Origin: Gammaproteobacteria bacterium
GTDB taxonomy: Bacteria; Pseudomonadota; Gammaproteobacteria; JAGOUN01
Assembly: GCA_046290385.1 (NCBI GenBank)
Contig: JBKAGM010000001.1
Location: 1,026 to 65,025, forward strand
Direction: 5' to 3'
DNA: 64,000 nucleotides
Part shown: piece by piece, positions 10,559 through 45,497 of the stretch
Layout of the letters: each line of letters begins with the position of its first letter
Numbering within the stretch: position 1 is the stretch's first letter
Program-made: the position numbers and the translations under genes
Notes under the pieces: generated by a model
Told to the model about the DNA's origin: nothing
The model's input: the letters and a program-made list of their open reading frames with translations, nothing else
Database searches by the model: none

Positions 10559-10581
10559 TTTTAAATATACGAGGGAAATAG

Positions 10582-28664: not shown

Positions 28665-29610
28665 GGGTTTTTTCAAAACTCAGCCCAACATTTTAATTTG
28701 TAGCGTGTTTCTGATAAGAATATAATTACAAATGATGTTGTTGAAGAAAAATATTATGAACTGTCCTCATTGCCACTCAAAAAAGACGTCTGGAATTACT
28801 CGCAAAACAGGGTTAGGCTATTTGCAATATCGTTGTTCAGACTGCGGTAGGCAGTTTAATGAACGTAGCGGCACCCCACTGAATTTTATAGAGCATCCTA
28901 CCGAAGTGGTCATGATTGCCATTCATTACTATTATCGCTTTAAAGTTAGCCTGGATGATGTGGTGGAGCTCATGATGATGCGTGGATTTCATATGAGTCA
29001 TCAAATGGTTCATAACTGGACCAAACGTTTGGTGTTGACTTAGGGTTAAAATGTCATACAAAACGTAAAAGATTTTCTGGGAACAAGTGGCATGTTGATG
29101 CAACGTATTTACGTATTGAAGGTCGTTAGTGCTATTTCTACAGAGCGATAGATAAAGCAGGTTATTTAGTGGATGTCTACTTAAGTGATGTGCGTGATCA
29201 AAAATCAGCAGGAGCCTTTTTTAAACAAGCGATAGAAACAACAAGGATTATTCCAGTTCAAGTTACGACAAATAAAGGGCTTGTGCTTACTCTCGCAATT
29301 AAGAGTGTTTTTGGTCGTAAACGTAGCATCATGATAGTAAGCATATGAACAACTCTTGAGTAGCCCTATCGTGCTATTTAGTCACGCTATAAAGTTACAA
29401 AATTATTCAAAAACATTTTCAATGCCTTAATATTTTATAAGGCTATTGAAGAAGCATGCCGATTATTTCGCATGAAAATAAAACACCCACCACAAGCCCT
29501 AGAATACTCATGTAAAAATTTAAAATTTCAAAAAACACATTACCAAAGAAAACTAAACCAAGTTCAAGTGCTTAAATATTGCTCCGAAGGTGCAGAGTTT
29601 TTACAGAACC
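28665..29610 (+). mobile_element. IS6-family insertion sequence, full length (~945 bp)
   Basis: imperfect terminal IRs ggttttttcaaaactcagccc (left) and gcagagtttttacaga (right, reverse complement); internal IS6-type transposase gene. Confidence 0.7.
28732..29347 (+). pseudogene. IS6-family DDE transposase with an N-terminal zinc finger; disrupted
   Basis: WHVDATYLRI...YFYRAID...VDVYLS matches the IS26/IS6 core; a frameshift near 29040 and an in-frame TAG near 29126 break the reading frame. Confidence 0.7.
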
Positions 29611-29946
29611 TTATCGTCTAAAGATATGTTTCTTTTTCTTATTATGTAATGTGAAGAATAAATAATATTATAAGTAGGAGTCGTTACAAGTGAAATATAA
29701 AAATCAGTATTTTTTACGGTTATCTTTAAAAAATAAATAAATATAATTTGTATTACCTAAGTGAAAAACTACTTTTATAGAAATAAAAGTTTATATATGA
29801 ATTTATAATGGAGTTTGTTATGAATGTTGATTTGGCAAGAAATTTTCAAAGCTTCACTAAAACTAGAAATTTATTGAATTTCATGGGATATCCTAGTGCT
29901 GATTCCAAAGATTATAGTTTTTCTGAAGAATTTAAATCAGGGGGGC

Positions 29947-30786
29947 ACTATGGAAGCTTTCAAGTTGAATAATCTTAAACTTATTGAGGAAGCAATTAGT
30001 TTATCAAAACAATACAATATTGATATTGATCGATTTATTGAGTGTCGAGGAATCATGCGCTTACCTGATTCAGAGATTAGGGGAATGGTTGATTTATGTG
30101 CGGAATCTAAAAAAGGATTAGTAATGTCAATCGGTCCACGAGCTACAAATGATATAGGAGCTTTTTCATTTACTGAAAATGGTAAGCGTGTTGGTTATCG
30201 TAATCGAGGAATGGAAAATATTATCTATGCATTGGAAGAGGTGCAGCGCGGTATAGAACTAGGGGTTCGTGGATTTTTGTTATATGACGAAGGGTTATTG
30301 TATCTATTAAATAAAATGCGTGAGAAAGATGTACTTCCTAAAGAGATATCTTTCAAATACTCAGTGCATGCTGCCTGTAGTAATCCAATATCTGCAAGGT
30401 TACTAGAAGATAACGGAATTGATAGTATTAATTTAATGCCTGATGTTGATTTAAATATGTTATCAGCTTTTCGTAAAGCAGTGAGTGTCCCATTAGATCT
30501 ATTTTCAGATACTGCAAAAGCTGCTGGCGGGTTTATTCGAACTTATGAAGTAGCAGAAATGATACGACTTGCTTCACCGGTTTACTTAAAATGTGGTCCT
30601 GTTTCTCAGCCTCAGCAAAATCATTTGCCTTCGCCAGTGGAGTTAGAGGAAAGAGTAAAGCAAGCACGAAATGTGGTTGAGCATATTCAAAGATATTTAC
30701 CAGAAGCAAAACGTGTAAGCTCTAATGAATTTACATTAGCACTCCCAAAAACAGTTCTAGAATCCATCCAGAAAAAGGTTGCTTAA
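29947..30786 (+). CDS. hypothetical enzyme, possibly TIM-barrel-like; first gene of the cluster
   Basis: ~280 aa from MEAFKL; no confident family assignment. Confidence 0.35.
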   Translation, partial: TMEAFKLNNLKLIEEAISLSKQYNIDIDRFIECRGIMRLPDSEIRGMVDLCAESKKGLVMSIGPRATNDIGAFSFTENGKRVGYRNRGMENIIYALEEVQRGIELGVRGFLLYDEGLLYLLNKMREKDVLPKEISFKYSVHAACSNPISARLLEDNGIDSINLMPDVDLNMLSAFRKAVSVPLDLFSDTAKAAGGFIRTYEVAEMIRLASPVYLKCGPVSQPQQNHLPSPVELEERVKQARNVVEHIQRYLPEAKRVSSNEFTLALPKTVLESIQKKVA

Positions 30787-32476
30787 GGGGAAAAAGAAAA
30801 TGAAAAATTGGAAAGAATCTTGGAATGATAATTCTCGAACCTTTAAAAAGTATTGTGCTCAGCAAAAGCTTAAATTCCAAAAAGGATTGGAGTGTCCTGA
30901 GAAAGCACAGAGAGATGTATTAGATGATATTTTATCAATCACGCAGGCAAGCGAATTCGGACGAGAACATAAGCTTAAGCAAGTTAAGGATATCAAATCA
31001 TTACGTAATAATGTACCTATTCGTAGTTATGATCAATATAAGCCTTGGATTGAGCGCGAAATTTTAGCTAAAGGGGGCGTGCTCAGTACTGCCAAATTAG
31101 TGAGATGGCTAAAAACGAGTGGATCTACGGGGAGCTCTAAGAAAATCCCATATTCAATTCATTGGATGGAGAATTATCGTAGTCAAGCACTAGGAGTCTT
31201 GTGGGCAAGCTATTTGGAGGCAGCACCAGAGATATTATCTCATCCATATGCAATACTGGATACACAAACGATTCGTGAAAAAATCTCTAGTAATCTAAAT
31301 GGGTTACCATATCAAGGAATTACCAACAGAAATCCAATTTTAAGTAATCTTGATTGGATGCCTCCTTGGGCTAACGCACCGTGGATGACAGATGATGTTC
31401 CAAATGGTTATGAAAATCGAATGTATTATCGTCTAAGATATTTTCTTGGTCAAGATCTTCGTGTAATTACTGCCATTAATCCAAGCACTCTTGTAGCGAT
31501 GCATTTACATTTAAGAAAGTTTTTACCAATGCTTGTTAAAGAAGTACATAACGGCACATTTATAGGAAAAAAAATCTTTGTACCAAATTCCGAATTAGCA
31601 GAAAAAATATCTAGTTTTACAGAAAGTAGTTCGCTTACAGATATATGGCCTAACTTATCACTCATTACTTGTTGGACAACAGCATCTGCCAAATTATATA
31701 AACCACAGCTTGATTTAATATTCCCGGGAGTAAAAGTATTGCCATTTATGACATGCGGTACAGAAGGAGTAGTGACACTTCCAGCTGATTTAAAAAATCA
31801 AGTAGGAGTGTTAGCCATAACGCAAGGTTTTTATGAATTTATTCCGGCAGAAATAGATTTAGAGAGTTGTTTAGGAAAAGATTCATCTGTTAAAACGTTG
31901 TTATTCAATGAGCTTGAGTTTGGTAAGGAATATCATTTAATAATGTCACAAGCAAATGGTCTTTATCGATTAGCAGTTGGAGATGTTTATAAAGTTATAG
32001 GTTTTGTTGGAAGCGTTCCTCGTATTGAATTTGTTCGTAGACATGGAACTTATTTTTCATTTACAGGTGAAAAAATTACAGAGTCACAAATGCTTGATTC
32101 TGTAGAAAGTGCAATAATCCATTCTAGTAATAAAGTTGGTCTATTTATGTGTTTTCCTGTATGGGGTGATATACCTTATTACAGAATATTAATCGAAACA
32201 GATTCATATAATGATGTGGTGGCTTCTGTAGAAATGGCCAGATTAATTGATACTAAACTATCGGAGATTAATGAAGAATATCAAAGTAAACGTGCAAGTC
32301 ATCGACTAGGAAAGGTAGAAGTATCATTTATTAAAACTGGTGTAATCAATAACTATTTAGAAGATAAAAAGAGTGGTGCCAACGCAACACAATATAAATA
32401 TAAACCTCTCCAAACAGATTTTAATTTGTGTAGTAAGTTGCTATCTGCAAGTAACTTCCAGGAGGTTATGTTGTGA
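30779..32476 (+). CDS. GH3-family adenylate-forming acyl-acid amido synthetase
   Basis: 565 aa; adenylation motif TSGSTGSSKKIPY, analogous to the GH3/JAR1 TSGTT..K.IP motif. Confidence 0.7.
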   Translation: MLKGKKKMKNWKESWNDNSRTFKKYCAQQKLKFQKGLECPEKAQRDVLDDILSITQASEFGREHKLKQVKDIKSLRNNVPIRSYDQYKPWIEREILAKGGVLSTAKLVRWLKTSGSTGSSKKIPYSIHWMENYRSQALGVLWASYLEAAPEILSHPYAILDTQTIREKISSNLNGLPYQGITNRNPILSNLDWMPPWANAPWMTDDVPNGYENRMYYRLRYFLGQDLRVITAINPSTLVAMHLHLRKFLPMLVKEVHNGTFIGKKIFVPNSELAEKISSFTESSSLTDIWPNLSLITCWTTASAKLYKPQLDLIFPGVKVLPFMTCGTEGVVTLPADLKNQVGVLAITQGFYEFIPAEIDLESCLGKDSSVKTLLFNELEFGKEYHLIMSQANGLYRLAVGDVYKVIGFVGSVPRIEFVRRHGTYFSFTGEKITESQMLDSVESAIIHSSNKVGLFMCFPVWGDIPYYRILIETDSYNDVVASVEMARLIDTKLSEINEEYQSKRASHRLGKVEVSFIKTGVINNYLEDKKSGANATQYKYKPLQTDFNLCSKLLSASNFQEVML

Positions 32477-33378
32477 TAGAAAACAAACGAAAAAAATCGT
32501 TTAATTATTCAGTTTGCTCAATTGAATCAGACGGGGCCAAGCTAGCTTTACATAGTTGGGTGCCAGAAAAACCAAAAGCAATGGTTTATTACATACACGG
32601 TATTCAAAGCCATGCTGGTTGGTTGTTTGAAACAGGTTCTTATTTTGCAGAAAAAGGCATAGCAGTTTTTGTGGTTGATCGTCGTGGTTCTGGGAAAAGT
32701 GAAGGAATTCGTGGAGATATAGGAAACCATTTTCAATTACTCAATGACTATTTAAAAATATTAAGAATTATTCGATCATTATATATTCAATTACCACTTA
32801 CACTGATTGGGCAAAGTCTAGGAGGTTCTATTTTGTCAGCTTTATTGGCATTGCCAGATTATGATGTTGAATATAACAAAGTAGTTTTTTGTGCATCGGC
32901 ACTTGGAAAAAAGCATAATGAGGTGAGTGCAATTGATTATGCTCGAGTTATATCCGAAAGTAGCATGGATCTCATTGATATCCCTATCAAAGATGAGGAT
33001 TTCTCGGATCAAAGTAAGTATTTAGATTTCATAAGTTCTGATCCACTACTCTATCGAAAGATAACTAAAAGATCACTAGCAAGTTTGTTGTTAATGGAAA
33101 ACCTTTATCTATCGAAGCCTGGGTTACTATCAGAAAAGCAAGCTGTTTACGTTTGTCCAGAGGAAGATCCAATCGTGAATTTGGATTATTCAATTTCAGT
33201 GTTCCAGAAATTAACAAATGAGCATGGAGAAGTAAAAAGGTTTCAAACTTATAAACACTACCTTTGGTTTACTGATCAATCAATGTTAGTTCATCAGTGG
33301 ATAGTTAACTGGATTTTGTCTACTAAGAAGGAGGTGTTGCATGAAGATTTCGATATATCAAGTAGTACCGCAGCTTAG
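32473..33378 (+). CDS. alpha/beta-fold hydrolase (lysophospholipase/thioesterase-like)
   Basis: HG oxyanion motif (HGIQSHAGW); nucleophile elbow GQSLGGS. Confidence 0.7.
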   Translation: MIENKRKKSFNYSVCSIESDGAKLALHSWVPEKPKAMVYYIHGIQSHAGWLFETGSYFAEKGIAVFVVDRRGSGKSEGIRGDIGNHFQLLNDYLKILRIIRSLYIQLPLTLIGQSLGGSILSALLALPDYDVEYNKVVFCASALGKKHNEVSAIDYARVISESSMDLIDIPIKDEDFSDQSKYLDFISSDPLLYRKITKRSLASLLLMENLYLSKPGLLSEKQAVYVCPEEDPIVNLDYSISVFQKLTNEHGEVKRFQTYKHYLWFTDQSMLVHQWIVNWILSTKKEVLHEDFDISSSTAA

Positions 33379-34516
33379 TGTCGCTTTTGGGCACGCAGAA
33401 ACTGTAAGAAAGAATGCTGAAAGCATTGTCATTAGTGTTGAATATAAAGGTATAAGAGCAATTGGTGAGTGTGCGCCTAGAGAATATGTTACAGGTGAAA
33501 CACTTGACCGAGTTTTTAATACGCTCCAAATTATACCATATAAGAATATTTTAAGAAGTATAGACCAACCAACCTTGATAATGGCAATTGATGCATTTAT
33601 TAAGTGGGACTTAAATAAGCTTACATCTTCTAATAATGCAACGTGTGCACTTGAACTGTTATTTTTGGATTGGCTTGGTCAACGATTTAAAATCCCCGTG
33701 TGTGAAATACTTTACAAATTCTATTTCGGCGCTTCAAAATTAAAGGAAGATTTAGTTTTTAAGACTAGTCAGGTATTGGATTTAGCGATAGATGTGAAAT
33801 ACTTTTTAGAAAATAGAGCTCCTTTCCATACAGTTAAAATTAAAGTTGATGGAGATTTAGAAAAAAATATAGAAAGAGTTTCAAAAATCAGAAGCGCAAT
33901 TGGTAAAGATGTGCCGATTATAGTCGATGCAAATATGTCTTGGACATTATCAGAAGCAATTAGACAAATAAATTATTTAAAAAAATACGATATTTCATTT
34001 TTTGAAGAGCCATTAAAAAAAGGTGCTTTTAAAGAATACGCTATTTTAAAAAAAATAACAGAATTAAAAATATTGCTTGATGAGTCAGTTTGCTCAGCTG
34101 ATGATGCATTAGTGGCAATTCGATTAAATGCGTGTGATGCATTCAACGTTCGTATTTCTAAGTGTGGAGGTATTCGAAATGCTCTAGATATAGTCCGAAT
34201 CGCGCGTATCAATAATCTTCAATTTCAAATAGGGGCCCAAGTAGCTGAGGTTGGGCCGCTAATTGCTGCAGGTAGACATTTGCGAAGTATTGTAGATGAT
34301 GCCATAACATTTGAAGCTGGACAGCCAGAACGTTGGTTTAGAGATTATTTGGTAACCCCTATGCCCCTTGTGGATAGAAGTACAAATTTAACTGGATTCT
34401 TACTAAAACCAGGTTTGGGAGTTGAACTAACAAGGTTCATAAAAAGTTGTTCAGAAAAGATGGCATTATGGAATGATAAAAGCAAACGATTTACTGAGGA
34501 GCATAAAATAACATGA
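33341..34516 (+). CDS. enolase-superfamily enzyme, MR/MLE subgroup (dipeptide epimerase/OSBS/N-acyl amino acid racemase-like)
   Basis: KIKVDG (KxK), DANMSW, FFEEP and LLDES metal-ligand motifs in the canonical order. Confidence 0.8.
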   Translation: MKISIYQVVPQLSVAFGHAETVRKNAESIVISVEYKGIRAIGECAPREYVTGETLDRVFNTLQIIPYKNILRSIDQPTLIMAIDAFIKWDLNKLTSSNNATCALELLFLDWLGQRFKIPVCEILYKFYFGASKLKEDLVFKTSQVLDLAIDVKYFLENRAPFHTVKIKVDGDLEKNIERVSKIRSAIGKDVPIIVDANMSWTLSEAIRQINYLKKYDISFFEEPLKKGAFKEYAILKKITELKILLDESVCSADDALVAIRLNACDAFNVRISKCGGIRNALDIVRIARINNLQFQIGAQVAEVGPLIAAGRHLRSIVDDAITFEAGQPERWFRDYLVTPMPLVDRSTNLTGFLLKPGLGVELTRFIKSCSEKMALWNDKSKRFTEEHKIT

Positions 34517-36243
34517 ACCGCGTAGATAAGTATAATTCTGATTTATTAGTTGATTTATTGAAGTCTCATAAAATAGATTTTATTACGGCTAATCCAGGAT
34601 CAACGATTAGAGGATTATATGACTCTATCATCAATGATAAGAGCGATGAAAATATAGAATTAATACTCTGTTGTCATGAAGAAATTAGTGTTGCTCTTGC
34701 GCATGGATATGCAAAAATTTCTGGTAAACCGATGGTGGTTTTGTTACACGGAAATATCGGGCTTTTGCATGCAAGTATGGCAATTTTCAACGCTTGGGTA
34801 GATCGAGTGCCTATGATAATTATAAATGGTATAGGTCCTATGGCTGTTGAAAAAAGAAGACCATGGATTGATTGGATTCATACATCACAGAATCATGCTA
34901 ATGTATTACAAGGTATTGTAAAATGGCAGGATCAACCTGCTAGCTTTCCAAGTGTTGTTGAGTCTTTTAAAAGAGCATATAAGCTTACTAATATTTCACC
35001 TCAAGCACCAGTATATCTCACTATTGATGCAGCGGTTCAAGAAGAAATAACTGCTGAGTCGGATTTAAACTTGCTTCCATTGAAATTGCCCCTAAATGGT
35101 CAAGCTGATGAGCACTCATTACGGCTCTTAGCCAAAAGTTTATCTTTAGCGAGCAATCCTCTCATAATAGTAGATCATATGGGTAGAGTGCCTGAGAGTA
35201 TTAACTATCTGATTGAAATAGTCGAAGAGTTACAAATACCTGTTATAGATTGCGGAGGTCGGTATAATTTTCCAAATACACATCCACTATGCTTAACAGG
35301 TATGCCGTCAGAATTCTATCAAGAAATAGATTTTGTTTTAGCAATTGACGTTGCAGATCTGTCAGCAGCGTTACAAAAATTTTCCAAAGATATTGAAATT
35401 TATCGAATAGACCTTAATGATTCATTGGTTAGCAGTTGGGTAGCAGATTATTGTGAAAATATTGATGTTAAATGTCATATAAATTCTGACAGTAGCGTTA
35501 CACTTCCGGTTTTGCTTGATTACTGTAGACAAATCATTCCCAAAATTAATTTATCAAGTTTGCAAAATCGAGGCGATGTTTGGAGACAGAGACATTATGA
35601 TTTACGTGAACAATGGATTCAAAAATCAAAACAATTGTCGCGTGGTAAGCGACTTTCAGTTTTGTCTGTTTTTGATAAGTTTTGGAATGTAATTCGATTT
35701 GAAGATTGGGTAGTAGTCAATGATGCTAGCATTCCTATGGGTAAGCAGTTAAGGAAAATATGGAAATTTGAGCATGATGGTTGCACTATTGGAAATAGCG
35801 GGGGTTGTGGATTGGGATATGGTATAGGTGCCTCCATTGGAGCAGCTTTAGCTTTAAAAAACACGGGAAAAATTGCCATTGGTTTTCAAGGTGATGGAGA
35901 TTTTTTGTTTACACCTAGTGCATTATGGACAGCCGCGCATTACAAAGTATCACTTCTTATTGTCATTATGAATAATGGCGGATATCAGAATACAGCTAAA
36001 CATGCGCATGAAGTTTCACAACAACGATCTAGATCAATGAAAAAAATTATGATTGGTAACGCTATTACAGATCCTAATGTAAATTATTTTAAACTTGCAA
36101 ATTCTTTTGGAGTTGCTGCATTACCTGCAATCGAGAAAATAGACGAAATTATTCCATCAGTACGTAAAGCCATAGATTATATTAAAGAAAATAAAAAACC
36201 ATTTTTATTAGAAATTAAGGTGGGGGATAAATATGAAAATTAA
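34513..36243 (+). CDS. thiamine-diphosphate-dependent enzyme of the ALS/PDC/Xsc family
   Basis: 576 aa; TPP motif GDGDFLF...NNGGY; three-domain length. Confidence 0.75.
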   Translation: MNRVDKYNSDLLVDLLKSHKIDFITANPGSTIRGLYDSIINDKSDENIELILCCHEEISVALAHGYAKISGKPMVVLLHGNIGLLHASMAIFNAWVDRVPMIIINGIGPMAVEKRRPWIDWIHTSQNHANVLQGIVKWQDQPASFPSVVESFKRAYKLTNISPQAPVYLTIDAAVQEEITAESDLNLLPLKLPLNGQADEHSLRLLAKSLSLASNPLIIVDHMGRVPESINYLIEIVEELQIPVIDCGGRYNFPNTHPLCLTGMPSEFYQEIDFVLAIDVADLSAALQKFSKDIEIYRIDLNDSLVSSWVADYCENIDVKCHINSDSSVTLPVLLDYCRQIIPKINLSSLQNRGDVWRQRHYDLREQWIQKSKQLSRGKRLSVLSVFDKFWNVIRFEDWVVVNDASIPMGKQLRKIWKFEHDGCTIGNSGGCGLGYGIGASIGAALALKNTGKIAIGFQGDGDFLFTPSALWTAAHYKVSLLIVIMNNGGYQNTAKHAHEVSQQRSRSMKKIMIGNAITDPNVNYFKLANSFGVAALPAIEKIDEIIPSVRKAIDYIKENKKPFLLEIKVGDKYEN

Positions 36244-36949
36244 TGTATTGCAGCATATAGGTGATAATAGTACATCTTTAGAAAAAGTTGTAGTAGTGAT
36301 CGATCAATATAGGGCTAGCTCTACTATTGTTACGGCGCTAGCTAATGGCGTTCAAAAAATAATACCATGTCTTTCGCTAGAGGAAGCGTTAGCAAAAAAA
36401 GCGCTTAGTGAATATAAAAATTTCTTAGTCTTGGGTGAGCAAAATGCTAGAAAATCAGAAAAGGCCTCACTAGGTAATTCACCTCTTCCATTCACTGTAA
36501 AAAATCACGGCATTAAAGAAATTTTAATGGCAACTACAAATGGAACAAAAGCATTGAAGCGCGCACAACATGCTCAAAAAATTATGTTGTGTAGCTTTTT
36601 AAATCTTTCCGCCATAGCAGAAAAGTTAATAAAATGTGATTCAGATTTTACAATTCTTTGTTCAGGCTCTAAAGGAAAGTTTTGTTTAGAAGATGTAATC
36701 TGCGCAAGCCTATTGATACAGCGTATTCAAAAAAAAGAAAGTTGTTTTTTTATAGATGATTTTACACGACTTGTTGCGGCATTAAATGAAGATCAGCAAT
36801 CTTTATTATGTGAAAGTAAATCATATAAGAAGTTAAAGAGTTTGGGATTTAATAGCGATTTAGACTTTTGTGATCAACAAGATTTGTATGAATCTGTACC
36901 GGTTTATTTAAAAACAGGTTTTATCAAGGAGTGTAAAAATGATAGGTAG
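36233..36949 (+). CDS. ComB-family (2-phosphosulfolactate phosphatase-like) phosphatase
   Basis: 238 aa; VVVIDQYRASSTI and LGNSP motifs match ComB-family signatures as recalled from memory. Confidence 0.5.
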   Translation: MKINVLQHIGDNSTSLEKVVVVIDQYRASSTIVTALANGVQKIIPCLSLEEALAKKALSEYKNFLVLGEQNARKSEKASLGNSPLPFTVKNHGIKEILMATTNGTKALKRAQHAQKIMLCSFLNLSAIAEKLIKCDSDFTILCSGSKGKFCLEDVICASLLIQRIQKKESCFFIDDFTRLVAALNEDQQSLLCESKSYKKLKSLGFNSDLDFCDQQDLYESVPVYLKTGFIKECKNDR

Positions 36950-38486
36950 ATTAAAAAATAAAAAACGAGAAGATGAAGTTCTGCTTTTAAGTGAAGGGCA
37001 AGGTGTAGAGGAGGATAGGGATCAGAATGATAGTAATGGAGAGTTAAGCGCCCATGGCATGTTTCTTGATTTAATTATTAATGGTTGGACTTTTAGCGCT
37101 GTTCGTATTCCTGATATGGCAGTAGAAATCATTGAGGGAGCTATTTTTTCCCGATTAGGACGAAATTATCTTGCAGCTGATGGTTTTATAGTTATAGAAC
37201 ATCGTGTATTTGCCACTACTGCATTAGGCGTTATTTTTGGTCTTGGTAATCTGCTAGATGAAGTAAAAGATGACTCTGTGCGACGTGGCCAAGTTTTTCG
37301 GCAAATATTTATTTTAGCGTTAGCTTTGAGTATCCCTGTCACCGCACTTTTAGCAATGAGCGAGCCAATTTTGATAGCACTTGGACAAAATAGAGATGTT
37401 GCTAAGATAACAGGTAATTTTTATATCGCTGCGCTAGTAAATACACCATTTTATATAGTTTTTTCTTCACTGCAACTATTATTCTTGACGTTGGGCCGTT
37501 CTGGTACTGGACTCAAGCTCAACTTTATCAACAATATTTTGAGTGTCATATTGAGCGGATTGCTTGCTCTTGGTTCAGGAAGCATTCCCCAGCTAAATGA
37601 ATGGGGAATGGGATTGGGTAGAAGTCTTTCGTCTATTATTATGGTGGGTGTAATTTCAATTGTACTCTACCGTGATAGTGTACAGCGAGAATCTCTCTTC
37701 AGCTGGACTCTTGGTGAAACTCAGTTTTTCCGCATGTTAAAACTAGGGCTGCCATATGGTGTTCAAGTTGGATCAGATTTTTTAATGCAATATGTGTTGG
37801 CGATATTGCTAGGTCGTATTGGAAAGAATGCATTAGCTGAAGCACGTGTTGCTGATATGGTCTATATGATTCCATTTGTGATGTTAGCTAGGTCGCCTCA
37901 AATCGTCGCGGCTCATGCTAGAACCGCAAAAGAAAATCAGAATCAAGGATATATAAAAAGATCAATGTTAATCAGCAGCTTAACTAATGGAGTGGCAGTG
38001 GGTATATGGATATTGATAACGAGTATTGGCGCAGATCCATTATTAAAGTATGTATTTGATTTGGATTCTCATAAAGAAAATGATTCCAAGATTATTTCTG
38101 GAGCTAAATTTTTAATGTTTATGACAGGGATTACTTTATTATCAGAGGTGGTTCGTTTTGTTTCAGGTTCTGTGCTTAGAGGGCTTGAAGACACAGTATC
38201 ACCTATGATTAATAGTATTGTTGTTCTTGATATCTTAGGGATAACCGTGCTGCTGACAGCTGCGCTGGGTTTTAATTTGGATGAAGAGGCGTTATATGGT
38301 ATTAGGGCAGCTATTATGTTTCTCGCATCTATGACGATTACAGCGTATGCAACACATATAGTAAAAGGGATACCACAGTTAAGCCAGTCAAATTATGCTA
38401 TCTGGAACGAAAATAATTTGGCTCCTTTAGTGTTAGAGAACGTAGTTGAAGATGATATAGAAGAAGGAGTTAAAAATGGTCAATAG
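36939..38486 (+). CDS. MATE-like polytopic efflux transporter
   Basis: 515 aa; ~12 TM helices in two halves; ~50-aa N-terminal cytoplasmic extension. Confidence 0.45.
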   Translation: MIGRLKNKKREDEVLLLSEGQGVEEDRDQNDSNGELSAHGMFLDLIINGWTFSAVRIPDMAVEIIEGAIFSRLGRNYLAADGFIVIEHRVFATTALGVIFGLGNLLDEVKDDSVRRGQVFRQIFILALALSIPVTALLAMSEPILIALGQNRDVAKITGNFYIAALVNTPFYIVFSSLQLLFLTLGRSGTGLKLNFINNILSVILSGLLALGSGSIPQLNEWGMGLGRSLSSIIMVGVISIVLYRDSVQRESLFSWTLGETQFFRMLKLGLPYGVQVGSDFLMQYVLAILLGRIGKNALAEARVADMVYMIPFVMLARSPQIVAAHARTAKENQNQGYIKRSMLISSLTNGVAVGIWILITSIGADPLLKYVFDLDSHKENDSKIISGAKFLMFMTGITLLSEVVRFVSGSVLRGLEDTVSPMINSIVVLDILGITVLLTAALGFNLDEEALYGIRAAIMFLASMTITAYATHIVKGIPQLSQSNYAIWNENNLAPLVLENVVEDDIEEGVKNGQ

Positions 38487-39204
38487 CTTGAAAGATAAAA
38501 AAATTGTCGTAATAGGTGGGAGTTCTGGTATTGGGTTTGAGACAGCAAAGTTATTTGCAGAATCGGGATCAAATGTTGTAATAGGTGGGCGAGATCAAGC
38601 AAAACTTAATCGTAAAAAAATAGAGCTAAGGGGAAACGTTGAAGCATTTTCAATTGATATTATGAATCTTGATTCTGTTCAGTTTTTTTTTGAGCGTGTT
38701 GGAAAATTTGATCACCTACATATTCCAGCAAGTAATATGAAGACCGGTAGTTTAAAAGATTTTGAAATTGCACTGGCAAGGCAATCTTTTGATAGTAAAT
38801 TTTGGGGTCCATATCAAGTTGCTAAAATAGCTTTGTCTTATTTATCTGACGTGGGCTCAATGACTTTTTTTTCTGGTGCGTATAGTCAGCGTCCTATTGC
38901 TTCAGGAGCTGCGATTGGATCAGCAATTAATAGTGCTATTGAAGGACTCGTTAGAGCTCTTGCGGTTGAATTGGCGCCTATTCGTGTTAATGCTATTTCA
39001 CCAGGACTTACAATGACTGAGCGATTTACTGAGAATTATTCACCAGAAGCACTAAAAGCATTAACAGAAAATTTTTCAGAGCACTTATTAATTAAGCGGC
39101 CAGCTGAATCAACAGAGGTTGCGTTAGCTGCTAAATATTTAACTGAGTGTTCTTATGTGACTGGTACAACATTATTTGTTGATGGTGGGTTGTCTTTACA
39201 TTGA
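38476..39204 (+). CDS. short-chain dehydrogenase/reductase
   Basis: IGGSSGIGFETAK Rossmann motif. Confidence 0.75.
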   Translation: MVNSLKDKKIVVIGGSSGIGFETAKLFAESGSNVVIGGRDQAKLNRKKIELRGNVEAFSIDIMNLDSVQFFFERVGKFDHLHIPASNMKTGSLKDFEIALARQSFDSKFWGPYQVAKIALSYLSDVGSMTFFSGAYSQRPIASGAAIGSAINSAIEGLVRALAVELAPIRVNAISPGLTMTERFTENYSPEALKALTENFSEHLLIKRPAESTEVALAAKYLTECSYVTGTTLFVDGGLSLH

Positions 39205-39210
39205 TGAAAA

Positions 39211-40047
39211 ATGAAGGGGAAAATTATGAAAAATAGTATAGTTATGAATGGTGGTACGCTTCAGCATTTATCTTTGATAAATGCTCTTAAGGTAACAAAG
39301 GATTCAGGTTATGATGGCTATGGTGTATGGTCAAACCAAATTTGCTCATCATTCGGCCATCATAATCAAGATGAATATTGTCAAATAATCATAGAAAGTG
39401 GGTTATCTATTCCTGAGATAATTTGGTTAAAGCCTTGGTTATATGTGAATGGTGAAGAGAAAAAGCAATCTATAAGTGATATTGAAAATCTATGCCAAGT
39501 TGCTAAGAAAATCAATGCTAGGATTATTACTGCACCAACTTATGGAGTATCGAATGATATTCAGTTAGCACAAAATAACTATAAAGATTTTTGTGATATT
39601 GCAGCCTGCTATGAATTAAAAGTTGGGTTGGAGTTTGTACCCATTTTTACTATTGATAGTTTGCTTTCAGCTTATGCATTGGTGCAAGCAGTAGATAGAA
39701 ATAATAGCGGAATCATTATTGATACTTTCCATGTTTTTAAAGGGAGCACTTCGCTAAGCGATATACAAAAAGTACCTGTTGAAAAAATGTTGTTGGTTCA
39801 TTTGTGTGATTTTAATGATGAAGATCCTTGTGGTGATATTCTATTTGAAGCTCGAAATAAGCGATTATCTCCAGGTAGAGGTGTATTTGATCTGCAGAGC
39901 TTTATTAGTGAAATGACAATACATGGTTATGAAGGATCATATTCGTTAGAAGTGTTGAATCAAAATAATCGCAATATAAATTCAGAAAGTTTTTCAATTA
40001 GTATCTTAAAGGATGCTAAAAATATTTTAGGTGTGAAAAGGAGATAG
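39211..40047 (+). CDS. xylose-isomerase-like TIM-barrel protein (sugar-phosphate isomerase/epimerase family)
   Basis: GLEF, DTFH and HLCD metal-ligand motifs. Confidence 0.65.
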   Translation: MKGKIMKNSIVMNGGTLQHLSLINALKVTKDSGYDGYGVWSNQICSSFGHHNQDEYCQIIIESGLSIPEIIWLKPWLYVNGEEKKQSISDIENLCQVAKKINARIITAPTYGVSNDIQLAQNNYKDFCDIAACYELKVGLEFVPIFTIDSLLSAYALVQAVDRNNSGIIIDTFHVFKGSTSLSDIQKVPVEKMLLVHLCDFNDEDPCGDILFEARNKRLSPGRGVFDLQSFISEMTIHGYEGSYSLEVLNQNNRNINSESFSISILKDAKNILGVKRR

Positions 40048-40051
40048 AAGC

Positions 40052-41695
40052 ATGAAAGAATTAGAGAATAAACAATTAGCTAAGCGTATTCGTGAGTCAA
40101 TTATTGAAACAGCTTCAGAAGGGGGATTTCATTTTTCTTCAAGTTTGGGTGTAGTAGAGCTCGTTATAGCTCTATACCGAGTATTTGATTTTGAGAAGAA
40201 TCAAGTTGTTTTCGATGTGGGGCATCAGCGATTTCCTTATTTAATGTTAAGAGATGGTCATTTCAATGTGCCTCACTATGAAGATTACAGCATGTTTATT
40301 TATCCTGGTTTTGCCGGGCTTTCGGCAGCATCAGCTGAAGGGCTATCAGTGAATGACCCTGAAAATAAAGTTATTGCTGTTATTGGAGACGGTTCACTGA
40401 CTTGTGGTGAAGTATTTGAATCATTAAATAACATTGGAGCTCATCAAAGTAATGTTTTGGTGGTGCTCAATGAAAATGGTCAATCGATTGTTGATAATGT
40501 TGGTGCACTTAGCGATGGAAAGTCTGTAAGGCAGTATGCGGAATCTTTAAAGTTTGAATATATAGGTACAGCGGATGGTCACAATACAGAACAGTTAGTT
40601 GAAATATTGGAAGGTCTCAAGCAAAAAAAGCATCCTGTGTTTTTGCATGTAATTACTCAAAAAGGTAAAGGTTATTTGCACTCTGAATCAAATCCAGCTT
40701 TATATCACCGTCCGACGACTTCATTTGATGTGCATACAGGTAAGATTTTGCCAAATCAAGATGTTGCAAAGGCAATGATGGGGGAATCGCTAGACATATT
40801 ACAGAAAAAAAGTTTAGCTATGTTAGAAAAAGGTGAAAGTTTATATTTAATCTCTCCTGCCTGTCCTTTATTTCCAAAAGTTGCAGAAAAATATCCTAAA
40901 AACGTTTTTGATACTGGGATCAGTGAACAGCATTGTATGACTTTTTCTACAACACTGGCAGCAAAAGGAAATAAGGTGATTTGTACAATCATAGCTCCAT
41001 TTTTATCGCGTTGTTATAGTCAAATTTTAGACCTTGCACATCAAAATGCACCATTAGTTATCTCTGTTCCTATGATGGGAGCAAATGCTCTTGGTTCAAC
41101 TCATCAAGCTGTGCATATGTTAGGCGCCCTGAGGCAAATTCCAAATTTATCAATTGTACATGCAATCAATATGAAAGAATATGAGATGTTGTTAGATGAG
41201 ATGTTGGAAGTCGGTAAGCCTGGTATTCTGTTTGTTCCTAAAGAGAATGTGCCATGTGAGGTGGTTGATAATTATGAATATGGGAAGGGGTTTATTTTAA
41301 GAGAAGGATACGCCGCAACGATATTGCCTATTGGCTCAATGTTTTCGATTGCAATTCAATTAGCAGAAAAATATGAGGGCATCGAAATTATTAACCCAAG
41401 GTACTTAAAACCATTGGATTTAGAATTGTTGTTTTCTAGTATTAAAAAAACTGGAAGGTTGTTAATTTTAGAGGATGGACTTAAAGTGGGTGGTTTAGGT
41501 GAAGAAGTAATATCGAAAATATTTGCGTCTATGCCGCATGTTCATTGCAAACATATTGGGTACACAAGCTTATTTCCTAAATATGAAGCATATGATAAAG
41601 CTATTAAAGAATATGATTTTTCATTCGTACGATGTATGAATACACTATCAGAGCTTTTGCAACTAGAAAAGCGAGGTTATCTCAAGTGTGCTTAA
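40052..41695 (+). CDS. DXS-like transketolase-family TPP enzyme
   Basis: GGFHFSSSLGVVEL...DVGHQ and IGDGSLTCGEVFESLNNIG...VLNENGQSI align closely with the 1-deoxy-D-xylulose-5-phosphate synthase signature regions. Confidence 0.8.
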   Translation: MKELENKQLAKRIRESIIETASEGGFHFSSSLGVVELVIALYRVFDFEKNQVVFDVGHQRFPYLMLRDGHFNVPHYEDYSMFIYPGFAGLSAASAEGLSVNDPENKVIAVIGDGSLTCGEVFESLNNIGAHQSNVLVVLNENGQSIVDNVGALSDGKSVRQYAESLKFEYIGTADGHNTEQLVEILEGLKQKKHPVFLHVITQKGKGYLHSESNPALYHRPTTSFDVHTGKILPNQDVAKAMMGESLDILQKKSLAMLEKGESLYLISPACPLFPKVAEKYPKNVFDTGISEQHCMTFSTTLAAKGNKVICTIIAPFLSRCYSQILDLAHQNAPLVISVPMMGANALGSTHQAVHMLGALRQIPNLSIVHAINMKEYEMLLDEMLEVGKPGILFVPKENVPCEVVDNYEYGKGFILREGYAATILPIGSMFSIAIQLAEKYEGIEIINPRYLKPLDLELLFSSIKKTGRLLILEDGLKVGGLGEEVISKIFASMPHVHCKHIGYTSLFPKYEAYDKAIKEYDFSFVRCMNTLSELLQLEKRGYLKCA

Positions 41696-41717
41696 GTTAA
41701 TATAAGGAGAAGTATAT

Positions 41718-42938
41718 ATGAAAATTAAAATAAAATTTAAAAAAACGTCAATAATGGTTTTATTATTTTTCGTTCCATTTTTGATGGGGATGGGCGTGGA
41801 TTTATATGTCCCTTCATTGCCAGCTATCGCTATATTTTATCAAACTGATCCACATTGGGTACAATTAACAATAGGTCTTTACATGTTGGGCTATGGAGTT
41901 GGGCAGCTTTTTCTTGGGGTTCTTTCAGATAGTTTAGGACGTAAGAAAATAATGTTGATGAGTGGTATTTCATATGTCATTATTAGTTATGTTGCGAGTG
42001 TTTCGCCTGAGGTTTGGTTTTTAAATCTAGCGCGATTTATTCAAGGTTTTGGTATTGCTGGATTGGGAGTTGCTGTTCGTGCTGTTGCAAGTGATTGTTT
42101 TAATGATCTAGATTTAACAAAAGCATTAACATGCTTTTCCATGAGTTGGGCTTTAGGCCCAATTATAGGACCATTTTTAGGAAGTTATTTACAACATTTC
42201 TTTGGCTGGAAGGCAAATTTTTATTTTTTCGCTATCTATGGTGCAATTATTACATTTTATATTGTGCTCTTTATACCTGAGACAATTGAAACGAGGCATC
42301 CATTACATCTTAAAATACTTTATAATAGTGCTAAGGTAATATGTAAAAATAAAACTTTTATTGCTGCATCGCTAATTGCTTCTTTAGTTTATTCAGTTTT
42401 AGTCTTATTTAATGTCGTTGGCCCATTTTTAATTCAGAAGGTGCTTCATTATACAGTTATCGACTATGGTCGTTTTGCGCTGATTCTTGGTGTTGCCTAC
42501 TTTTTGGGTAATTTTAGTAATCGGATATTGGTTAATTACTGTAGTCCTGTACGAATAGTATATATTACTCTATTGTTGAGCTTGGTTATATCTATAGCAA
42601 TGTTACTTTTAGCATTGATAGTAGGGTCTTGCATCGTTGTTGTATTGGCTCCAGTCTTCTCGATTTTTTACTTATCAGCAATGATGTTGCCTAATATGGT
42701 TTCAAAATCAGTTGGAATGTTTCCCAAGCAAGGAGGGACTGCAAATGCTATTTGTGGGACAGTCGTCGCATTAGGTGTATTTATCATGTCTAGTTTTGCC
42801 AGCAGTTTAAAAATACACTCACAAATGCCACTAGCGATTATGTATATGGTTATCCTATTTGCTTCACTGATGATATTTTCAGTGTATATCAAAAAAAATG
42901 ATTCTGTCAAAACTCAGTGCGCTCGACTCAATCTTTAA
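41718..42938 (+). CDS. MFS drug-efflux-type transporter (Bcr/CflA-like); its 3' end runs into an IS inverted repeat
   Basis: 406 aa; 12 TM; the last ~12 codons and the stop lie within the IS6 terminal repeat at 42903-42920. Confidence 0.75.
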   Translation: MKIKIKFKKTSIMVLLFFVPFLMGMGVDLYVPSLPAIAIFYQTDPHWVQLTIGLYMLGYGVGQLFLGVLSDSLGRKKIMLMSGISYVIISYVASVSPEVWFLNLARFIQGFGIAGLGVAVRAVASDCFNDLDLTKALTCFSMSWALGPIIGPFLGSYLQHFFGWKANFYFFAIYGAIITFYIVLFIPETIETRHPLHLKILYNSAKVICKNKTFIAASLIASLVYSVLVLFNVVGPFLIQKVLHYTVIDYGRFALILGVAYFLGNFSNRILVNYCSPVRIVYITLLLSLVISIAMLLLALIVGSCIVVVLAPVFSIFYLSAMMLPNMVSKSVGMFPKQGGTANAICGTVVALGVFIMSSFASSLKIHSQMPLAIMYMVILFASLMIFSVYIKKNDSVKTQCARLNL

Positions 42939-43578
42939 GTGCTTGAACTTGATTTAGTTTTTTGTGGTAAATAGTTCGTTAAAATTTTGAATTTTAGACA
43001 TGAGTCTTCTGTGACGTTTAGCGCGTGTTTTATTTTTTATTAGAAGTAATTGTCATATTCTTCGAATGTCGTACAAAATATTAATACACTAAAATCGCTC
43101 TGTAGAAATAACACCGAAGATCATCAATACGTAAATACGTTGCATCAATATGCCATTTGTTCCGAGAAAACCCTTTGCGTTTTGCGCGACATTTTAACCC
43201 TAACTCAACACCAAACGTTTGGGTCCAGTTATGGATCGTTTGATGACTCATATGAAATCGGCGCATTATTATGAGCTCTACCACATCATCCTGGCTGACT
43301 TTAAACCGATAATAGTAATGAATAGCGATCATTACCATTTCGGCAGGATGCTTGATAAAATTCAGTGGGGCGCAGCTACGTTCATTAAACTGCCTACCGC
43401 TCAGTCTGAACAACGATATTGCAATTAGCCTAACCCCGTTGAGTAATTCCAGACGTCTTTTTTGAGTTTCAATGAGCACAGTTCATAGGTTTTTTCTCCA
43501 ACATCTTTATTTGTGATTATATTCTTATAAGCAACACGCTACAAATTACAATGTTAGACTGAGTTTTGACTAAGCCAG
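42903..43578 (-). mobile_element. IS6-family insertion sequence remnant (copy B, internally deleted)
   Basis: IRs ttctgtcaaaactcagtgc (42903-42920) and gagttttgactaagcc (43561-43576). The transposase N-terminus and part of the core (43081-43479) are in one frame with no frameshift. Confidence 0.65.
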
Positions 43579-43988: not shown

Positions 43989-45497
43989 ATGAAAAAATCG
44001 GATAAAAAGAAGTTTATCGCACTTGCAGAAATTGATAGTCTTCGAATGGGAATTGGTCGTGGAAAAGTATGGTATGTTCCTTCATTTCCCGATGATCCTT
44101 CGAGTGTTAGTGAATTTAGTTACGAGGATATGCAACTAAGACAAAAAGAGAGCGAATTTTATGAAAATAATAATGATGCCATTCATTTTGAAAGTGCTTA
44201 CCAAAATACAAAAAGACTATTAAAGCTGAATGATTTAAATCTCAATAATAGAGATCACGTAAGAATGCTAGAAAGTAATTTAAACTATGTGAGAGGTGGT
44301 ATTGATGAGGTTGAAGATATCGAGCATGCCTTTAAAATACTCTCTGATAGATCTGATGAACTAAAGTTACCTAAAAAACTTATTAACTCTGCTTCAGAAC
44401 TTTGGCCGACGGATACTATTTATTCAAGATTATTTTTTCTTTTTGCTGACGAAGGTTTGAGTGGATTACAAGATAAAATACAGGAGCAGGAAATTCAAGA
44501 ATGGAATGCTTTTCTAGCTAAGTTTGAGGGAAATAAGGATGCGTTAAAAAATTTACTTTTGGATAGTAACTTTTCTCCAAAGCCAGAAATGCAGGCTCTC
44601 TTGAATAGATTTCTGATCAAACAAGGTTATGCTAGTGATGCAGAATTATCAGCATTTGTTGAATCAATGTGTGGATCCATACAAGAATTTCGAGCGATTC
44701 AAAAAACCCAAGAAAAAATCATACAAAAGTGTTCCAATATAACTCAAAAACTTGAGCAAAAACACGAACATAAATTAGATGCAAACAAGAGGGCTCAAAT
44801 GTGGCAGGATGCAAGAAATATAGCTTCAAACTTACATAGTATTGGTGTCGCAACAGGTAATCGTCAATTGGCTAGGATAGGCGCAGTAGCGCAATCAGGT
44901 ATTGATGCGGCATTAATAACAAGTAAAATCACCAAGACATTATCTGGCAACAATTTAGGTCCTGCAGAGTACTTGTCAGCAGCTTCTTCAGGTATTGGTC
45001 TTGTATTGATAGGGTTGCAATTGGTAGGAATGTTTTCTGACCCTAAACCTGATCCAGCTATTGAAATGTTGAATGTGCTATTCACACAAATTCAACGAAA
45101 TCATGTTGAAGTAATGAATCGATTAAATATTTTAGAAGAAAATCAAATTCTTATTTATACAAAAATTAATAAAATACTTTTTGAAATAAAAGTAAATCAT
45201 ATAGAAATGAAAGCATATGCAAGAACAAGATTTGATCAAACAGATAATAAGTTAGATATACTTACATCTCTTGTTGATAATGGATTTAGAACATCATATT
45301 TAAATAAAATTGATGTCTTGCATGACAATATAGAAAGATATTCAGGTAAAAACACATTTTATTCCAGCCAAACAAGAGAAAGTTATTTTGATAAAAATCA
45401 TATTTTATTTAACTATCTGACTATTCCCGAGAAAGGAGCATCTAATTTAAGAAAAATAAGCTATTTAAATGGTTATACTGTCGCATCGTTATTTTAA
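43989..45497 (+). CDS. hypothetical protein, candidate secreted effector
   Basis: 502 aa; no recognisable motif; coiled-coil-like stretches and one hydrophobic segment; AT-rich codon usage. Confidence 0.4.
   Translation: MKKSDKKKFIALAEIDSLRMGIGRGKVWYVPSFPDDPSSVSEFSYEDMQLRQKESEFYENNNDAIHFESAYQNTKRLLKLNDLNLNNRDHVRMLESNLNYVRGGIDEVEDIEHAFKILSDRSDELKLPKKLINSASELWPTDTIYSRLFFLFADEGLSGLQDKIQEQEIQEWNAFLAKFEGNKDALKNLLLDSNFSPKPEMQALLNRFLIKQGYASDAELSAFVESMCGSIQEFRAIQKTQEKIIQKCSNITQKLEQKHEHKLDANKRAQMWQDARNIASNLHSIGVATGNRQLARIGAVAQSGIDAALITSKITKTLSGNNLGPAEYLSAASSGIGLVLIGLQLVGMFSDPKPDPAIEMLNVLFTQIQRNHVEVMNRLNILEENQILIYTKINKILFEIKVNHIEMKAYARTRFDQTDNKLDILTSLVDNGFRTSYLNKIDVLHDNIERYSGKNTFYSSQTRESYFDKNHILFNYLTIPEKGASNLRKISYLNGYTVASLF

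Follow-up and report, generated by a model that had tools for sequence, protein, structure and literature searches.

We analysed a 64,000-nucleotide stretch of DNA (hereafter the window; contig JBKAGM010000001.1 of assembly GCA_046290385.1) from a gammaproteobacterial metagenome-assembled genome (MAG), and found that an 11-gene operon on its + strand (29896–42938) belongs to a real, conserved and apparently uncharacterised family of gene clusters. We estimate, with a probability of roughly 0.55, that the operon makes a small conjugate, a carboxylic acid linked to an amino acid through an amide bond, and exports it, which would make it an orphan biosynthetic family. Judged by synteny, the cluster is a composite of two modules, each found in many bacteria, and not a one-off. 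Module A, as it emerges from locus comparison, is orf1, the first gene of the operon, with a ComB-family phosphatase gene; the two are habitually paired and often stand with a thiamine diphosphate (ThDP) enzyme that resembles benzoylformate decarboxylase (BFD) or acetolactate synthase (ALS). Module B, delimited in the same way, comprises a GH3-family adenylating amido synthetase, an alpha/beta hydrolase and an enolase-superfamily enzyme of the MR/MLE type. In this genome the operon is cargo flanked by insertion sequences (IS) near a type IV secretion system (T4SS), and its first gene is disrupted.

Operon architecture and the six-gene core

The 11 open reading frames (ORFs) lie at coordinates identical to those in an earlier sequence-only reading of the window (Table 1). 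Seven of the ten junctions overlap, by 4–38 nt, and the remaining three are gaps of 6, 4 and 22 nt, which bears out the description in that reading of 11 co-directional genes with short gaps or overlaps. On coordinates, this co-directional and tightly packed arrangement is the layout of one operon. A promoter and terminator scan was uninformative, giving fewer matches than in shuffled sequence, and the sole terminator-like hairpin on the + strand sits within the ThDP gene. No Rfam or tRNA match was found anywhere in the window.

Pfam and NCBIfam profile searches confirmed each of the families that the sequence-only reading had named. We used the curated NCBIfam cut-offs as the criterion for rejecting known-enzyme identities; none of the 11 proteins reaches one, and hence no protein is equated with a particular known enzyme. 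The earlier reading had considered that profile searches might place most of these ORFs in unrelated housekeeping families; with every NCBIfam score below its cut-off, they do not.

Table 1. Features of the operon, its flanks and the orthologues of its SDR-fold protein. Positions refer to the window unless a locus is named.
Feature	Position	Strand	Evidence or remark
orf1, main frame; TIM barrel, distantly U32-like	29896–30786	+	NCBI call: 278 aa, ATG at 29950
orf1 N-terminal fragment, other reading frame	29808–29954	+	frameshift site ~29946–29955
GH3-family adenylating acyl-acid amido synthetase	30779–32476	+	likely ATG 30800, giving 558 aa; Pfam GH3 N, M, C
alpha/beta-hydrolase-fold enzyme	32473–33378	+	Pfam Hydrolase_4; Ser nucleophile, GQSLG
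MR/MLE enzyme, enolase superfamily, MLE subgroup	33341–34516	+	Pfam MR_MLE_C; closest to dipeptide epimerases
ThDP enzyme, BFD/ALS type	34513–36243	+	Pfam TPP_enzyme_N, TPP_enzyme_C
ComB-family (2-phosphosulfolactate-phosphatase family) phosphatase	36233–36949	+	Pfam 2-ph_phosp, 211 bits
Divergent MATE-family transporter	36939–38486	+	Pfam MatE, E 8.8e-14; TIGR00797 94.9 vs cut-off 147
Atypical SDR-fold protein, PRK07041 type	38476–39204	+	PRK07041 229 vs cut-off 257
Xylose-isomerase-like TIM barrel, accessory	39211–40047	+	Pfam AP_endonuc_2
Short DXS paralogue, 547 aa, ThDP transketolase type, accessory	40052–41695	+	DXP_synthase_N, Transket_pyr, Transketolase_C
MFS transporter	41718–42938	+	Pfam MFS_1, E 1e-39
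LuxR/GerE-type transcription regulator, candidate operon regulator	27677–28480	+	Pfam GerE, E 2.3e-10
Degenerate IS6-family copy A, partial, upstream of LuxR gene	26754–27093	-	repeat families D1, I4
Degenerate IS6-family copy B, directly upstream of operon	28666–29610	+	Zn_ribbon_IS1595 fragment 28732–29043
Degenerate IS6-family copy C, inverted relative to B, directly downstream of operon	42902–43569	-	DDE_Tnp_IS240 fragment 43081–43479
SDR orthologue, L087	14509–15225		
SDR orthologue, L108	15319–16041		
SDR orthologue, L001	16630–17340		
SDR orthologue, L003	20345–21058		

A six-gene core, orf1–GH3–hydrolase–MR/MLE–ThDP–ComB, is carried by seven of the eight loci in the GH3 clade to which the window belongs: the window itself, Serratia plymuthica (LRQU01000001, about 312.7–320 kb), Vibrio mangrovi, a Coxiellaceae MAG, the MAG OFTM122, an ENA contig and a Logan contig. 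The eighth locus (L008) has no detectable orf1, ComB or ThDP gene. All 11 families recur on the Logan contig (L108), at 31–62% identity and in a slightly different order, and 10 of the 11 on OFTM122 (L087), an arrangement that exceeds chance. The xylose-isomerase-like barrel, the short DXS paralogue, the major facilitator superfamily (MFS) transporter and the short-chain dehydrogenase/reductase (SDR)-fold protein are common to the window, L087 and L108, where the MFS orthologues are 49–55% identical; L108 and L008 have a MatE gene as well. Other core loci have other accessory genes, namely YCII, a beta-hydroxyacid dehydrogenase and an MFS transporter in Vibrio and on the ENA contig, and YCII and a beta-hydroxyacid dehydrogenase in Serratia, where an MFS gene lies upstream.

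We found no matching characterised pathway in the literature and no published pathway with this gene order, the full-text results mostly concerning 'glycoside hydrolase family 3'; the relevant papers were those on legionellol and on OlsH/OlsI, and this cassette is described in neither. To this extent the earlier statement that the combination is unmatched stands, but our synteny search showed that it recurs elsewhere and is composed of two widespread modules.

The GH3–hydrolase–MR/MLE cassette

The GH3 protein has all three Pfam domains of the family, N, M and C (PF03321/PF23571/PF23572), at 151.2, 69.5 and 46.2 bits against a gathering threshold of 23.6 (E-values 5e-44, 3e-19 and 8e-12). It carries the nucleotide-binding motif TSGST at residues 113–117, keeps all 75 invariant columns of a 27-sequence subfamily alignment, and is 100% identical to a 558-aa protein (P0001) encoded on a 126-kb contig of a 'Gammaproteobacteria bacterium' MAG. 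Its best matches in the PDB, and its only solved relatives, are plant GH3 enzymes (JAR1, GH3.5/GH3.6 and GH3.12/PBS3), which are alike in the three domains and the nucleotide-binding motifs. They match at E of only 1e-15 to 1e-25, and the bacterial subfamily, unlike them, sits in a fixed three-gene cassette. Adenylation followed by amino acid ligation is established for plant GH3 enzymes and for the bacterial OlsH (PMC12493201).

Relatives that are 40–58% identical to the window GH3 occur in Streptomyces, Kitasatospora, Nocardiopsis, Pseudomonas, Serratia, Vibrio, Brenneria and others. In a scan with one genome per species, the subfamily was present in 237 of 185,579 species genomes, and more than 7,500 bacterial GH3 homologues were reported in 2025 (PMC12493201); the earlier remark that GH3 ligases are rare in bacteria was thus overstated. 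A GH3 search of a plasmid collection gave two distant Streptomyces matches only.

For gene-order counts we kept 80 species-level loci, mostly from Streptomyces with some from Pseudomonas and Burkholderia. The GH3 gene is followed by an alpha/beta hydrolase gene in all 80 and then by an MR/MLE gene in 78, with the order invariant; a larger set of loci kept it in 83–85 of 85. The three genes therefore form a fixed cassette. An SDR gene lies within 10 kb of the cassette in 27 of the 80 loci.

A neighbour-joining tree of 87 GH3 sequences groups the window with seven others and nothing else. In this eight-locus clade (clade A) the hydrolase nucleophile is Ser (GQSxGG), and in 78 other loci (clade B, Streptomyces/Pseudomonas) it is Cys (GHCLGG). 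One extra Ser-type sequence (L007) lies on the same contig as L087, giving nine sequences from eight loci. The split in nucleophile coincides with the GH3 tree, and the DP and HYL triad positions of the hydrolase family are more than 90% conserved. No model of OlsI, an alpha/beta-fold acyltransferase, is among the NCBIfam matches.

The MR/MLE protein retains the complete MLE-subgroup set of acid/base lysines and three metal ligands, K166-x-K168, D196, E222, D247 and K274, which is more than 90% conserved in 86 homologues and is shared with L-Ala-D/L-Glu epimerases and N-succinylamino-acid racemases. Its best PDB matches are the dipeptide epimerases 3q45, 3jva and 1jpm (E 2e-30 to 8e-23), although the dipeptide-epimerase equivalogs are not reached (100.7 vs 500 and 64.1 vs 343). 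At the position of FDFD in YkfB, which we take to be the DxD motif that binds the amino terminus of the dipeptide, the window protein reads FEAG, within a family-wide E-x-G-Q-x-D. This replacement is consistent with a substrate whose amino terminus is blocked, an N-acyl amino acid for example.

The neighbourhoods of cassettes elsewhere bear on the kind of product. In Streptomyces the homologous cassette has AfsA and TetR regulators as neighbours, a context characteristic of specialised metabolism. In L008, genes similar to LeuA, LeuCD and LeuB, together with a methyltransferase and an aldo-keto reductase gene, precede the GH3 cassette. LeuA/CD/B-like genes make homologated 2-oxo and 2-hydroxy acids, and this 2-oxoacid elongation set agrees with a GH3 substrate of the 2-oxo or 2-hydroxy acid type.

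In some clusters the cassette is followed by a protein of 284–300 aa that has no Pfam family (L001, 15458–16330; L003, 15617–16519; L086, 13792–14646). It occurs in Pseudomonas, Streptomyces and Nocardiopsis with 35% identity between genera and forms a separate conserved family, absent from the window; its motifs look fumarylacetoacetate-hydrolase (FAH)-like by eye only. We considered whether orf1 corresponds to this ~290-aa protein of the Pseudomonas and Streptomyces clusters and rejected the idea, as BLASTP found no similarity.

The orf1–ComB pair and the orf1 frameshift

The orf1 product has more than 1,200 homologues at 50–74% identity, and its family comprises 804 representatives at the 50% clustering level (E ≤ 1e-3). 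It has no assignable Pfam family. A match to Peptidase_U32 (PF01136) is below threshold (17.3 bits, with 22.4 required), and 26 of 42 family members match the same model weakly. An AlphaFold2 model of the Serratia orthologue (P0126) is a TIM barrel with a pLDDT of 90.

The gene next to orf1 is commonly a ComB-family gene. The pairing is present in all GH3-type core loci and in 11 of 17 further orf1 loci, most of the remaining contigs ending at orf1. We recognise three architectures. One combines the pair with the GH3 cassette. Another adds a ThDP enzyme of the same type, a cupin, an oxidoreductase and an MFS gene, as in a Rickettsiaceae MAG, which also has VirB4 fragments and a Tn3 transposase nearby, and in two metagenomic loci (L091 and L092). 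The third brings the pair together with three Mur-ligase paralogues and a DAO oxidase (L088, 9237–16573; L099, 8865–17694). L088 additionally has MurJ, and one of its Mur ligases carries a fused MurL-type epimerase; L099 repeats the layout, and its first ligase showed Mur-ligase domains only. Two of the three architectures end in ATP-dependent carboxylate-amine ligases and an epimerase, which supports the view that orf1 and ComB supply the acid that is ligated. The layout of L088 and L099 in itself resembles a peptide-stem-building system unrelated to the window operon.

The ComB-family phosphatase scores 137.6 against 175.05 for TIGR00298, and all NCBIfam equivalogs, including the PRK00886 models, stay below cut-off. 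A SulP/STAS sulfate-permease-family gene (24966–26516) lies 3 kb upstream of the operon that holds this ComB-family gene; no further link to sulfonates was seen.

All orf1 homologues start with about 45 residues that end in GGHYG-IELSSMNN. In the window these residues run from an ATG at 29808 in a frame that stops soon after GGHYG, and the main frame picks up at ...MEAFKLNN. The translated fragment, MEFVMNVDLARNFQSFTKTRNLLNFMGYPSADSKDYSFSEEFKSGGHYG, aligns with the N-termini of the homologues and then ends, and tblastn with the Serratia orthologue matches 29853–29954 and 29926–30747, with start coordinates in different frames. At the break, CACTATGGAAGCTTTC, a single added TGGAA restores H-Y-G-M-E-A-F, so that the lesion looks like the loss of a 5-nt repeat unit and not like a homopolymer miscall. 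One contig carries the sequence, and the frameshift may reflect either a genuine inactivating mutation or an error of assembly. No second orf1 copy was found in the window by tblastn. The main frame of the first gene does lie where the sequence-only reading placed it, but the gene is frameshifted, and the pathway may be inactive here.

Accessory enzymes

The ThDP enzyme carries a GDG...NN motif from residue 460. Its top NCBIfam model is PRK08327 (236.5 bits vs a cut-off of 456), with BFD and ALS also among the top matches and no MenD model among the 25 listed of 51 families, and its closest solved relative is BFD; we rejected identity with either ALS or BFD, as the curated cut-offs are missed.

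The SDR-fold protein had been read as a redox-tailoring enzyme, an assignment that its active site does not support: the catalytic Tyr and Lys are absent, replaced in the window by Gly and Asn. Across the window and the orthologues (L087, L108, L001 and L003, which include Pseudomonas and Streptomyces) the Tyr is replaced by G, A, T, I or Q and the Lys always by Asn, and three ordinary SDRs in the same alignment retain YxxxK. This pattern suggests that the cluster SDR should not count as an ordinary dehydrogenase.

The xylose-isomerase-like barrel co-occurs with the DXS-like gene in L087 and L108, and its best PDB matches are Lmo2234 (2g0w) and IolI (1i60). A glyoxylate-carboligase (gcl–hyi–glxR) reading of the ThDP enzyme and this barrel was rejected, the hydroxypyruvate-isomerase model giving 17 against 353. 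The DXS-like protein retains a GDG...N motif and scores 296.1 for TIGR00204 against a cut-off of 465.95. At 547 aa it falls in a group of about 18 short relatives, mostly of 540–580 aa; true DXS proteins are 30–36% identical to it and have 616–651 aa. With the cut-off missed and a length of ~620–630 aa expected, we rejected a DXS identity and with it the methylerythritol phosphate (MEP) pathway. A short DXS paralogue also stands in a cyclitol-type cluster of Kitasatospora (L109, 1–14502) with DHQ-synthase/ROK, inositol-phosphatase, APH-like and NTP-transferase genes, a hint that such paralogues may act on sugar phosphates.

A proposed pathway

In the pathway that we propose, module A would start from a phosphorylated precursor of three-carbon type and yield a 2-hydroxy or 2-oxo acid. 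By analogy with ComA and ComB, a 2-phospho-acid made by orf1 would lose its phosphate to the ComB-family enzyme. The 2-oxo acid derived from it would be the substrate of the ThDP enzyme, which would extend or decarboxylate it; in this lineage the short DXS paralogue would presumably perform a further two-carbon ligation and the xylose-isomerase-like barrel an isomerisation. GH3 would then activate the acid as its adenylate and couple it to an amino acid, and the alpha/beta-fold enzyme would move an acyl group or cleave it off. The free alpha-carboxylate of the N-acyl amino acid would be the site at which the MR/MLE enzyme works, most probably as an epimerase. Export of the product would fall to the MATE and MFS transporters, and control of the operon to the LuxR-type protein encoded upstream. 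Dipeptide epimerases and N-acyl-amino-acid racemases use N-acylated amino acids with a free carboxylate. The predicted GH3 product has a free alpha-carboxylate and is thus of the substrate type of the MLE-subgroup epimerases and racemases. Orphan clusters are common, and here it is the chemistry that we infer: every substrate, the order of steps, export and regulation. The stepwise scheme, with its substrates and step order, is tentative and rather unlikely to be correct throughout. The course that the sequence-only reading gave, from C–C ligation on a phospho-sugar through phosphatase, epimerase and redox steps to amide formation and export, is likewise a prediction.

Closest in logic to module A is coenzyme M biosynthesis (ComA, ComB, ComC and ComDE), where a ComB-family phosphatase is likewise tied to a barrel and a ThDP enzyme; the presumed course from 2-phospho-acid to 2-hydroxy acid to 2-oxo acid and on to a ThDP step is alike. 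Pfam and NCBIfam searches gave no ComA (PF02679), ComC or ComDE orthologue, so that only the ComB family is shared, and TIGR03846 gave 23.5 against 221.5, on the DXS-like protein. The sequence-only reading had set coenzyme M aside; that judgement is sound for orthologues, but the pairing of orf1, ComB and ThDP enzyme does resemble the logic of ComA, ComB and ComDE. It had been right to set aside MEP, given the missed DXS cut-off, and phosphonates as well: none of the 11 proteins matches the phosphoenolpyruvate (PEP) mutase family, and the operon is therefore not classed as a phosphonate cluster. A further parallel is MurD2/MurL, a 'ligate then epimerise' system whose ligase and epimerase logic is that of GH3 and MR/MLE; the families are unrelated, and the Mur clusters lie outside the window.

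A wider and more doubtful proposal is that orf1 and ComB form a new two-enzyme route to a 2-hydroxy-acid block that is passed to unrelated ligases (GH3 or Mur-type), each followed by an epimerase. This would define a new class of exported acyl-D-amino-acid or acyl-peptide metabolites, carried here on IS-flanked cargo beside a T4SS in host-associated bacteria.

Several points weigh against the amide-conjugate reading of the operon. The substrate and product assignments of all its members are predictions. The first gene is split by the frameshift, its N-terminal ~49 codons (29808–29954) lying in a different frame. A ComA-like identity of orf1 was rejected, as no Pfam or structural similarity to ComA was detected, and structure searches with the orf1-family barrel returned generic TIM matches only. 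The window holds no canonical dehydrogenase that could turn the 2-hydroxy acid into the 2-oxo acid for the ThDP step, given the missing Tyr and Lys of the SDR. Only 32 of the 80 loci have the ThDP gene after the cassette, and it is therefore optional for module B. The MLE subgroup also holds cycloisomerases and dehydratases, so that epimerisation is a prediction, and the putative role of the alpha/beta-fold enzyme is another weak point of the scheme. MFS proteins can import as well as export. Finally, the 200 nt that precede orf1 gave no sigma-70-like site on the + strand.

Alternative explanations

The nearest described system in architecture is that of the planctomycete Singulisphaera acidiphila, where OlsH (GH3-like) and OlsI (an O-acyltransferase of the alpha/beta-hydrolase superfamily) make ornithine lipid (PMC12493201): in both cases a GH3 ligase that makes, or would make, an N-acyl amino acid has an alpha/beta-fold acyl-handling enzyme as its neighbour. 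By this precedent the window GH3 would attach a fatty or hydroxy-fatty acid to the nitrogen of an amino acid, and the alpha/beta protein would be an O-acyltransferase. The outcome would be a lipoamino acid of membrane or surfactant type in place of a polar secreted metabolite. The adjacency of the two genes in every locus, the Cys nucleophile of clade B, which suits acyl transfer, and weak matches to phospholipase and lysophospholipase models agree with this, and the legionellol cluster of Legionella pneumophila (lpg2225–2234), a secondary-metabolite cluster of a Legionellales-type bacterium, also has a GH3 gene (PMC5640695). That cluster is based on enzymes of fatty-acid and polyketide type, namely KAS III, an acyl carrier protein (ACP) and acyl-CoA ligases, and the GH3 and an MFS pump are all that it has in common with the window operon. 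We nevertheless consider an amino-lipid pathway improbable. The window GH3 is not an OlsH orthologue (71.5 bits vs 620 for NF052613). Pfam found no ACP, KAS or acyl-CoA ligase in the operon, which has no lipid-supply genes; its GH3–hydrolase pair is instead followed by MR/MLE and accompanied by ThDP enzymes, ComB and orf1. Partners such as the ThDP enzymes, the ComB-family phosphatase, MR/MLE and the sugar-type barrels act on small polar acids. Scarcely more probable is a catabolic, salvage or stereo-inversion pathway in place of biosynthesis. In its catabolic form the operon would serve the uptake and breakdown of an aromatic or a dicarboxylic compound; MR/MLE would be a cycloisomerase and its neighbour a lactone hydrolase, a pair that recalls muconate cycloisomerase with enol-lactone or dienelactone hydrolase; the clade-B Cys nucleophile, CHMI and PhyH genes in clade-B clusters and the 284–300-aa protein that looks FAH-like by eye point the same way. 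In its stereo-inversion form, L-to-D (or D-to-L) conversion of an amino acid would be driven by ATP through acylation, epimerisation and deacylation, a cycle that the set of ligase, epimerase and hydrolase fits and that resembles the N-succinyl-amino-acid racemase route of Geobacillus. The presence of a MATE exporter argues against either form, as do the specialised-metabolism setting of the Streptomyces cassette beside AfsA, the ATP-consuming ligase, which is unusual in catabolism, and the MR/MLE matches, which are to epimerases at E 1e-30 and to muconate cycloisomerases at about 1e-13.

Menaquinone (Men) biosynthesis uses the same four superfamilies, and one could read the ThDP enzyme as MenD, the hydrolase as MenH, MR/MLE as MenC and GH3 as a replacement for MenE. 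A 1,4-addition to a chorismate-derived acceptor would then be followed by elimination, dehydration and aromatisation, and the aryl acid would be joined to an amino acid and not to CoA. MR/MLE does match OSBS models (E 1e-23), plant GH3.12/PBS3 uses benzoates and isochorismate, and L087 has a shikimate-dehydrogenase gene at its end. The scores speak against it: an OSBS/MenC identity was rejected at a best value of 83.9 vs 200.65, and the ThDP enzyme is BFD/PRK08327-like. An isochorismate synthase is absent and more than half of the triad loci are without a ThDP gene; we regard a Men-like route as very improbable. A different kind of alternative is that the operon is decaying cargo, mobilised by IS elements, with its first gene inactivated and no product made in this genome. 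The apparent loss of a TGGAA unit, the degeneracy of all three flanking IS6 copies and the want of a second orf1 in the window are consistent with decay, whereas the other ten ORFs are full length relative to their orthologues and keep their catalytic motifs, and the frameshift, seen on one contig, could be an error of MAG assembly. We take inactivity of the pathway in this genome, given the frameshifted orf1, to be possible but less likely than not. It concerns activity here and not the nature of the system, for which an exported acid–amino acid conjugate remains our preferred reading.

Genomic surroundings

Three IS6-family copies surround the operon and its candidate regulator, and no intact transposase was found in them, the frames being broken in all three. 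Copies B and C flank the operon in inverted orientation, 86–95% identical in their best segments, an IS6-type composite arrangement; inverted repeats I1–I3 and I6 pair copy B with 43094–43576 at 86–95% identity. Copy B has transposase-like pieces in several frames. By blastn, copies A and B are 95% identical over 157 nt and 77% over 188 nt, and copy C gives 87% over 480 nt and 74% over 184 nt, with inverted repeats I1–I3, I5 and I6. The LuxR gene lies between copies A and B. The Coxiellaceae MAG (L105) likewise has a GerE-family gene, 26% identical to that of the window, directly before its version of the cluster. A perfect 29-nt inverted repeat with a 7-nt spacer (27281–27345) precedes the LuxR gene by about 330 nt.

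Genes for VirB4, VirB6, VirB8, VirB10 and VirB11 at 7332–16043 place a VirB-type T4SS about 14 kb upstream of the operon, as the sequence-only reading had noted. The window VirB4 is at most ~34% identical to any VirB4 in a plasmid collection, and hence the island is without a close described relative. Downstream of the operon are a Tn3-family transposase and a tyrosine integrase (52365–55538 and 56690–57988) and an RND pump, and the region, by its gene content, looks like a mobile or integrative element. The T4SS is there, but the link of the operon to it, and to the host-directed product suggested earlier, is circumstantial, since the GH3 triad is commonest in free-living Streptomyces and Pseudomonas.

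Two large adjacent ORFs downstream of the operon (43989–45497, 502 aa; 45510–47660, 716 aa) have no Pfam match. Between the T4SS and the operon, on the - strand at 16776–20855, lie three co-directional genes, for a 675-aa PRK/uridine-kinase-family protein, an NTP-transferase and a class II aldolase, which may be a small unit of sugar-nucleotide type.

Implications

Given that the operon is mobile cargo with an apparently broken first gene, its importance in this particular genome is uncertain. For the family the consequences would be wider. If our reading is true, solving the cassette in one culturable host such as Serratia plymuthica, Vibrio mangrovi or a Pseudomonas would annotate at least 237 species genomes, mostly of Streptomyces with some of Pseudomonas, Burkholderia and Serratia, and would give bacterial GH3 ligases a second biochemical role beside ornithine-lipid synthesis. 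The orf1–ComB pairing would likewise offer a concrete assay route for the orf1 family, with its ~800 representatives, and a conserved SDR-fold protein without Tyr and Lys hints at non-redox chemistry. We therefore regard this operon family as a good lead for enzymology and natural-product work.

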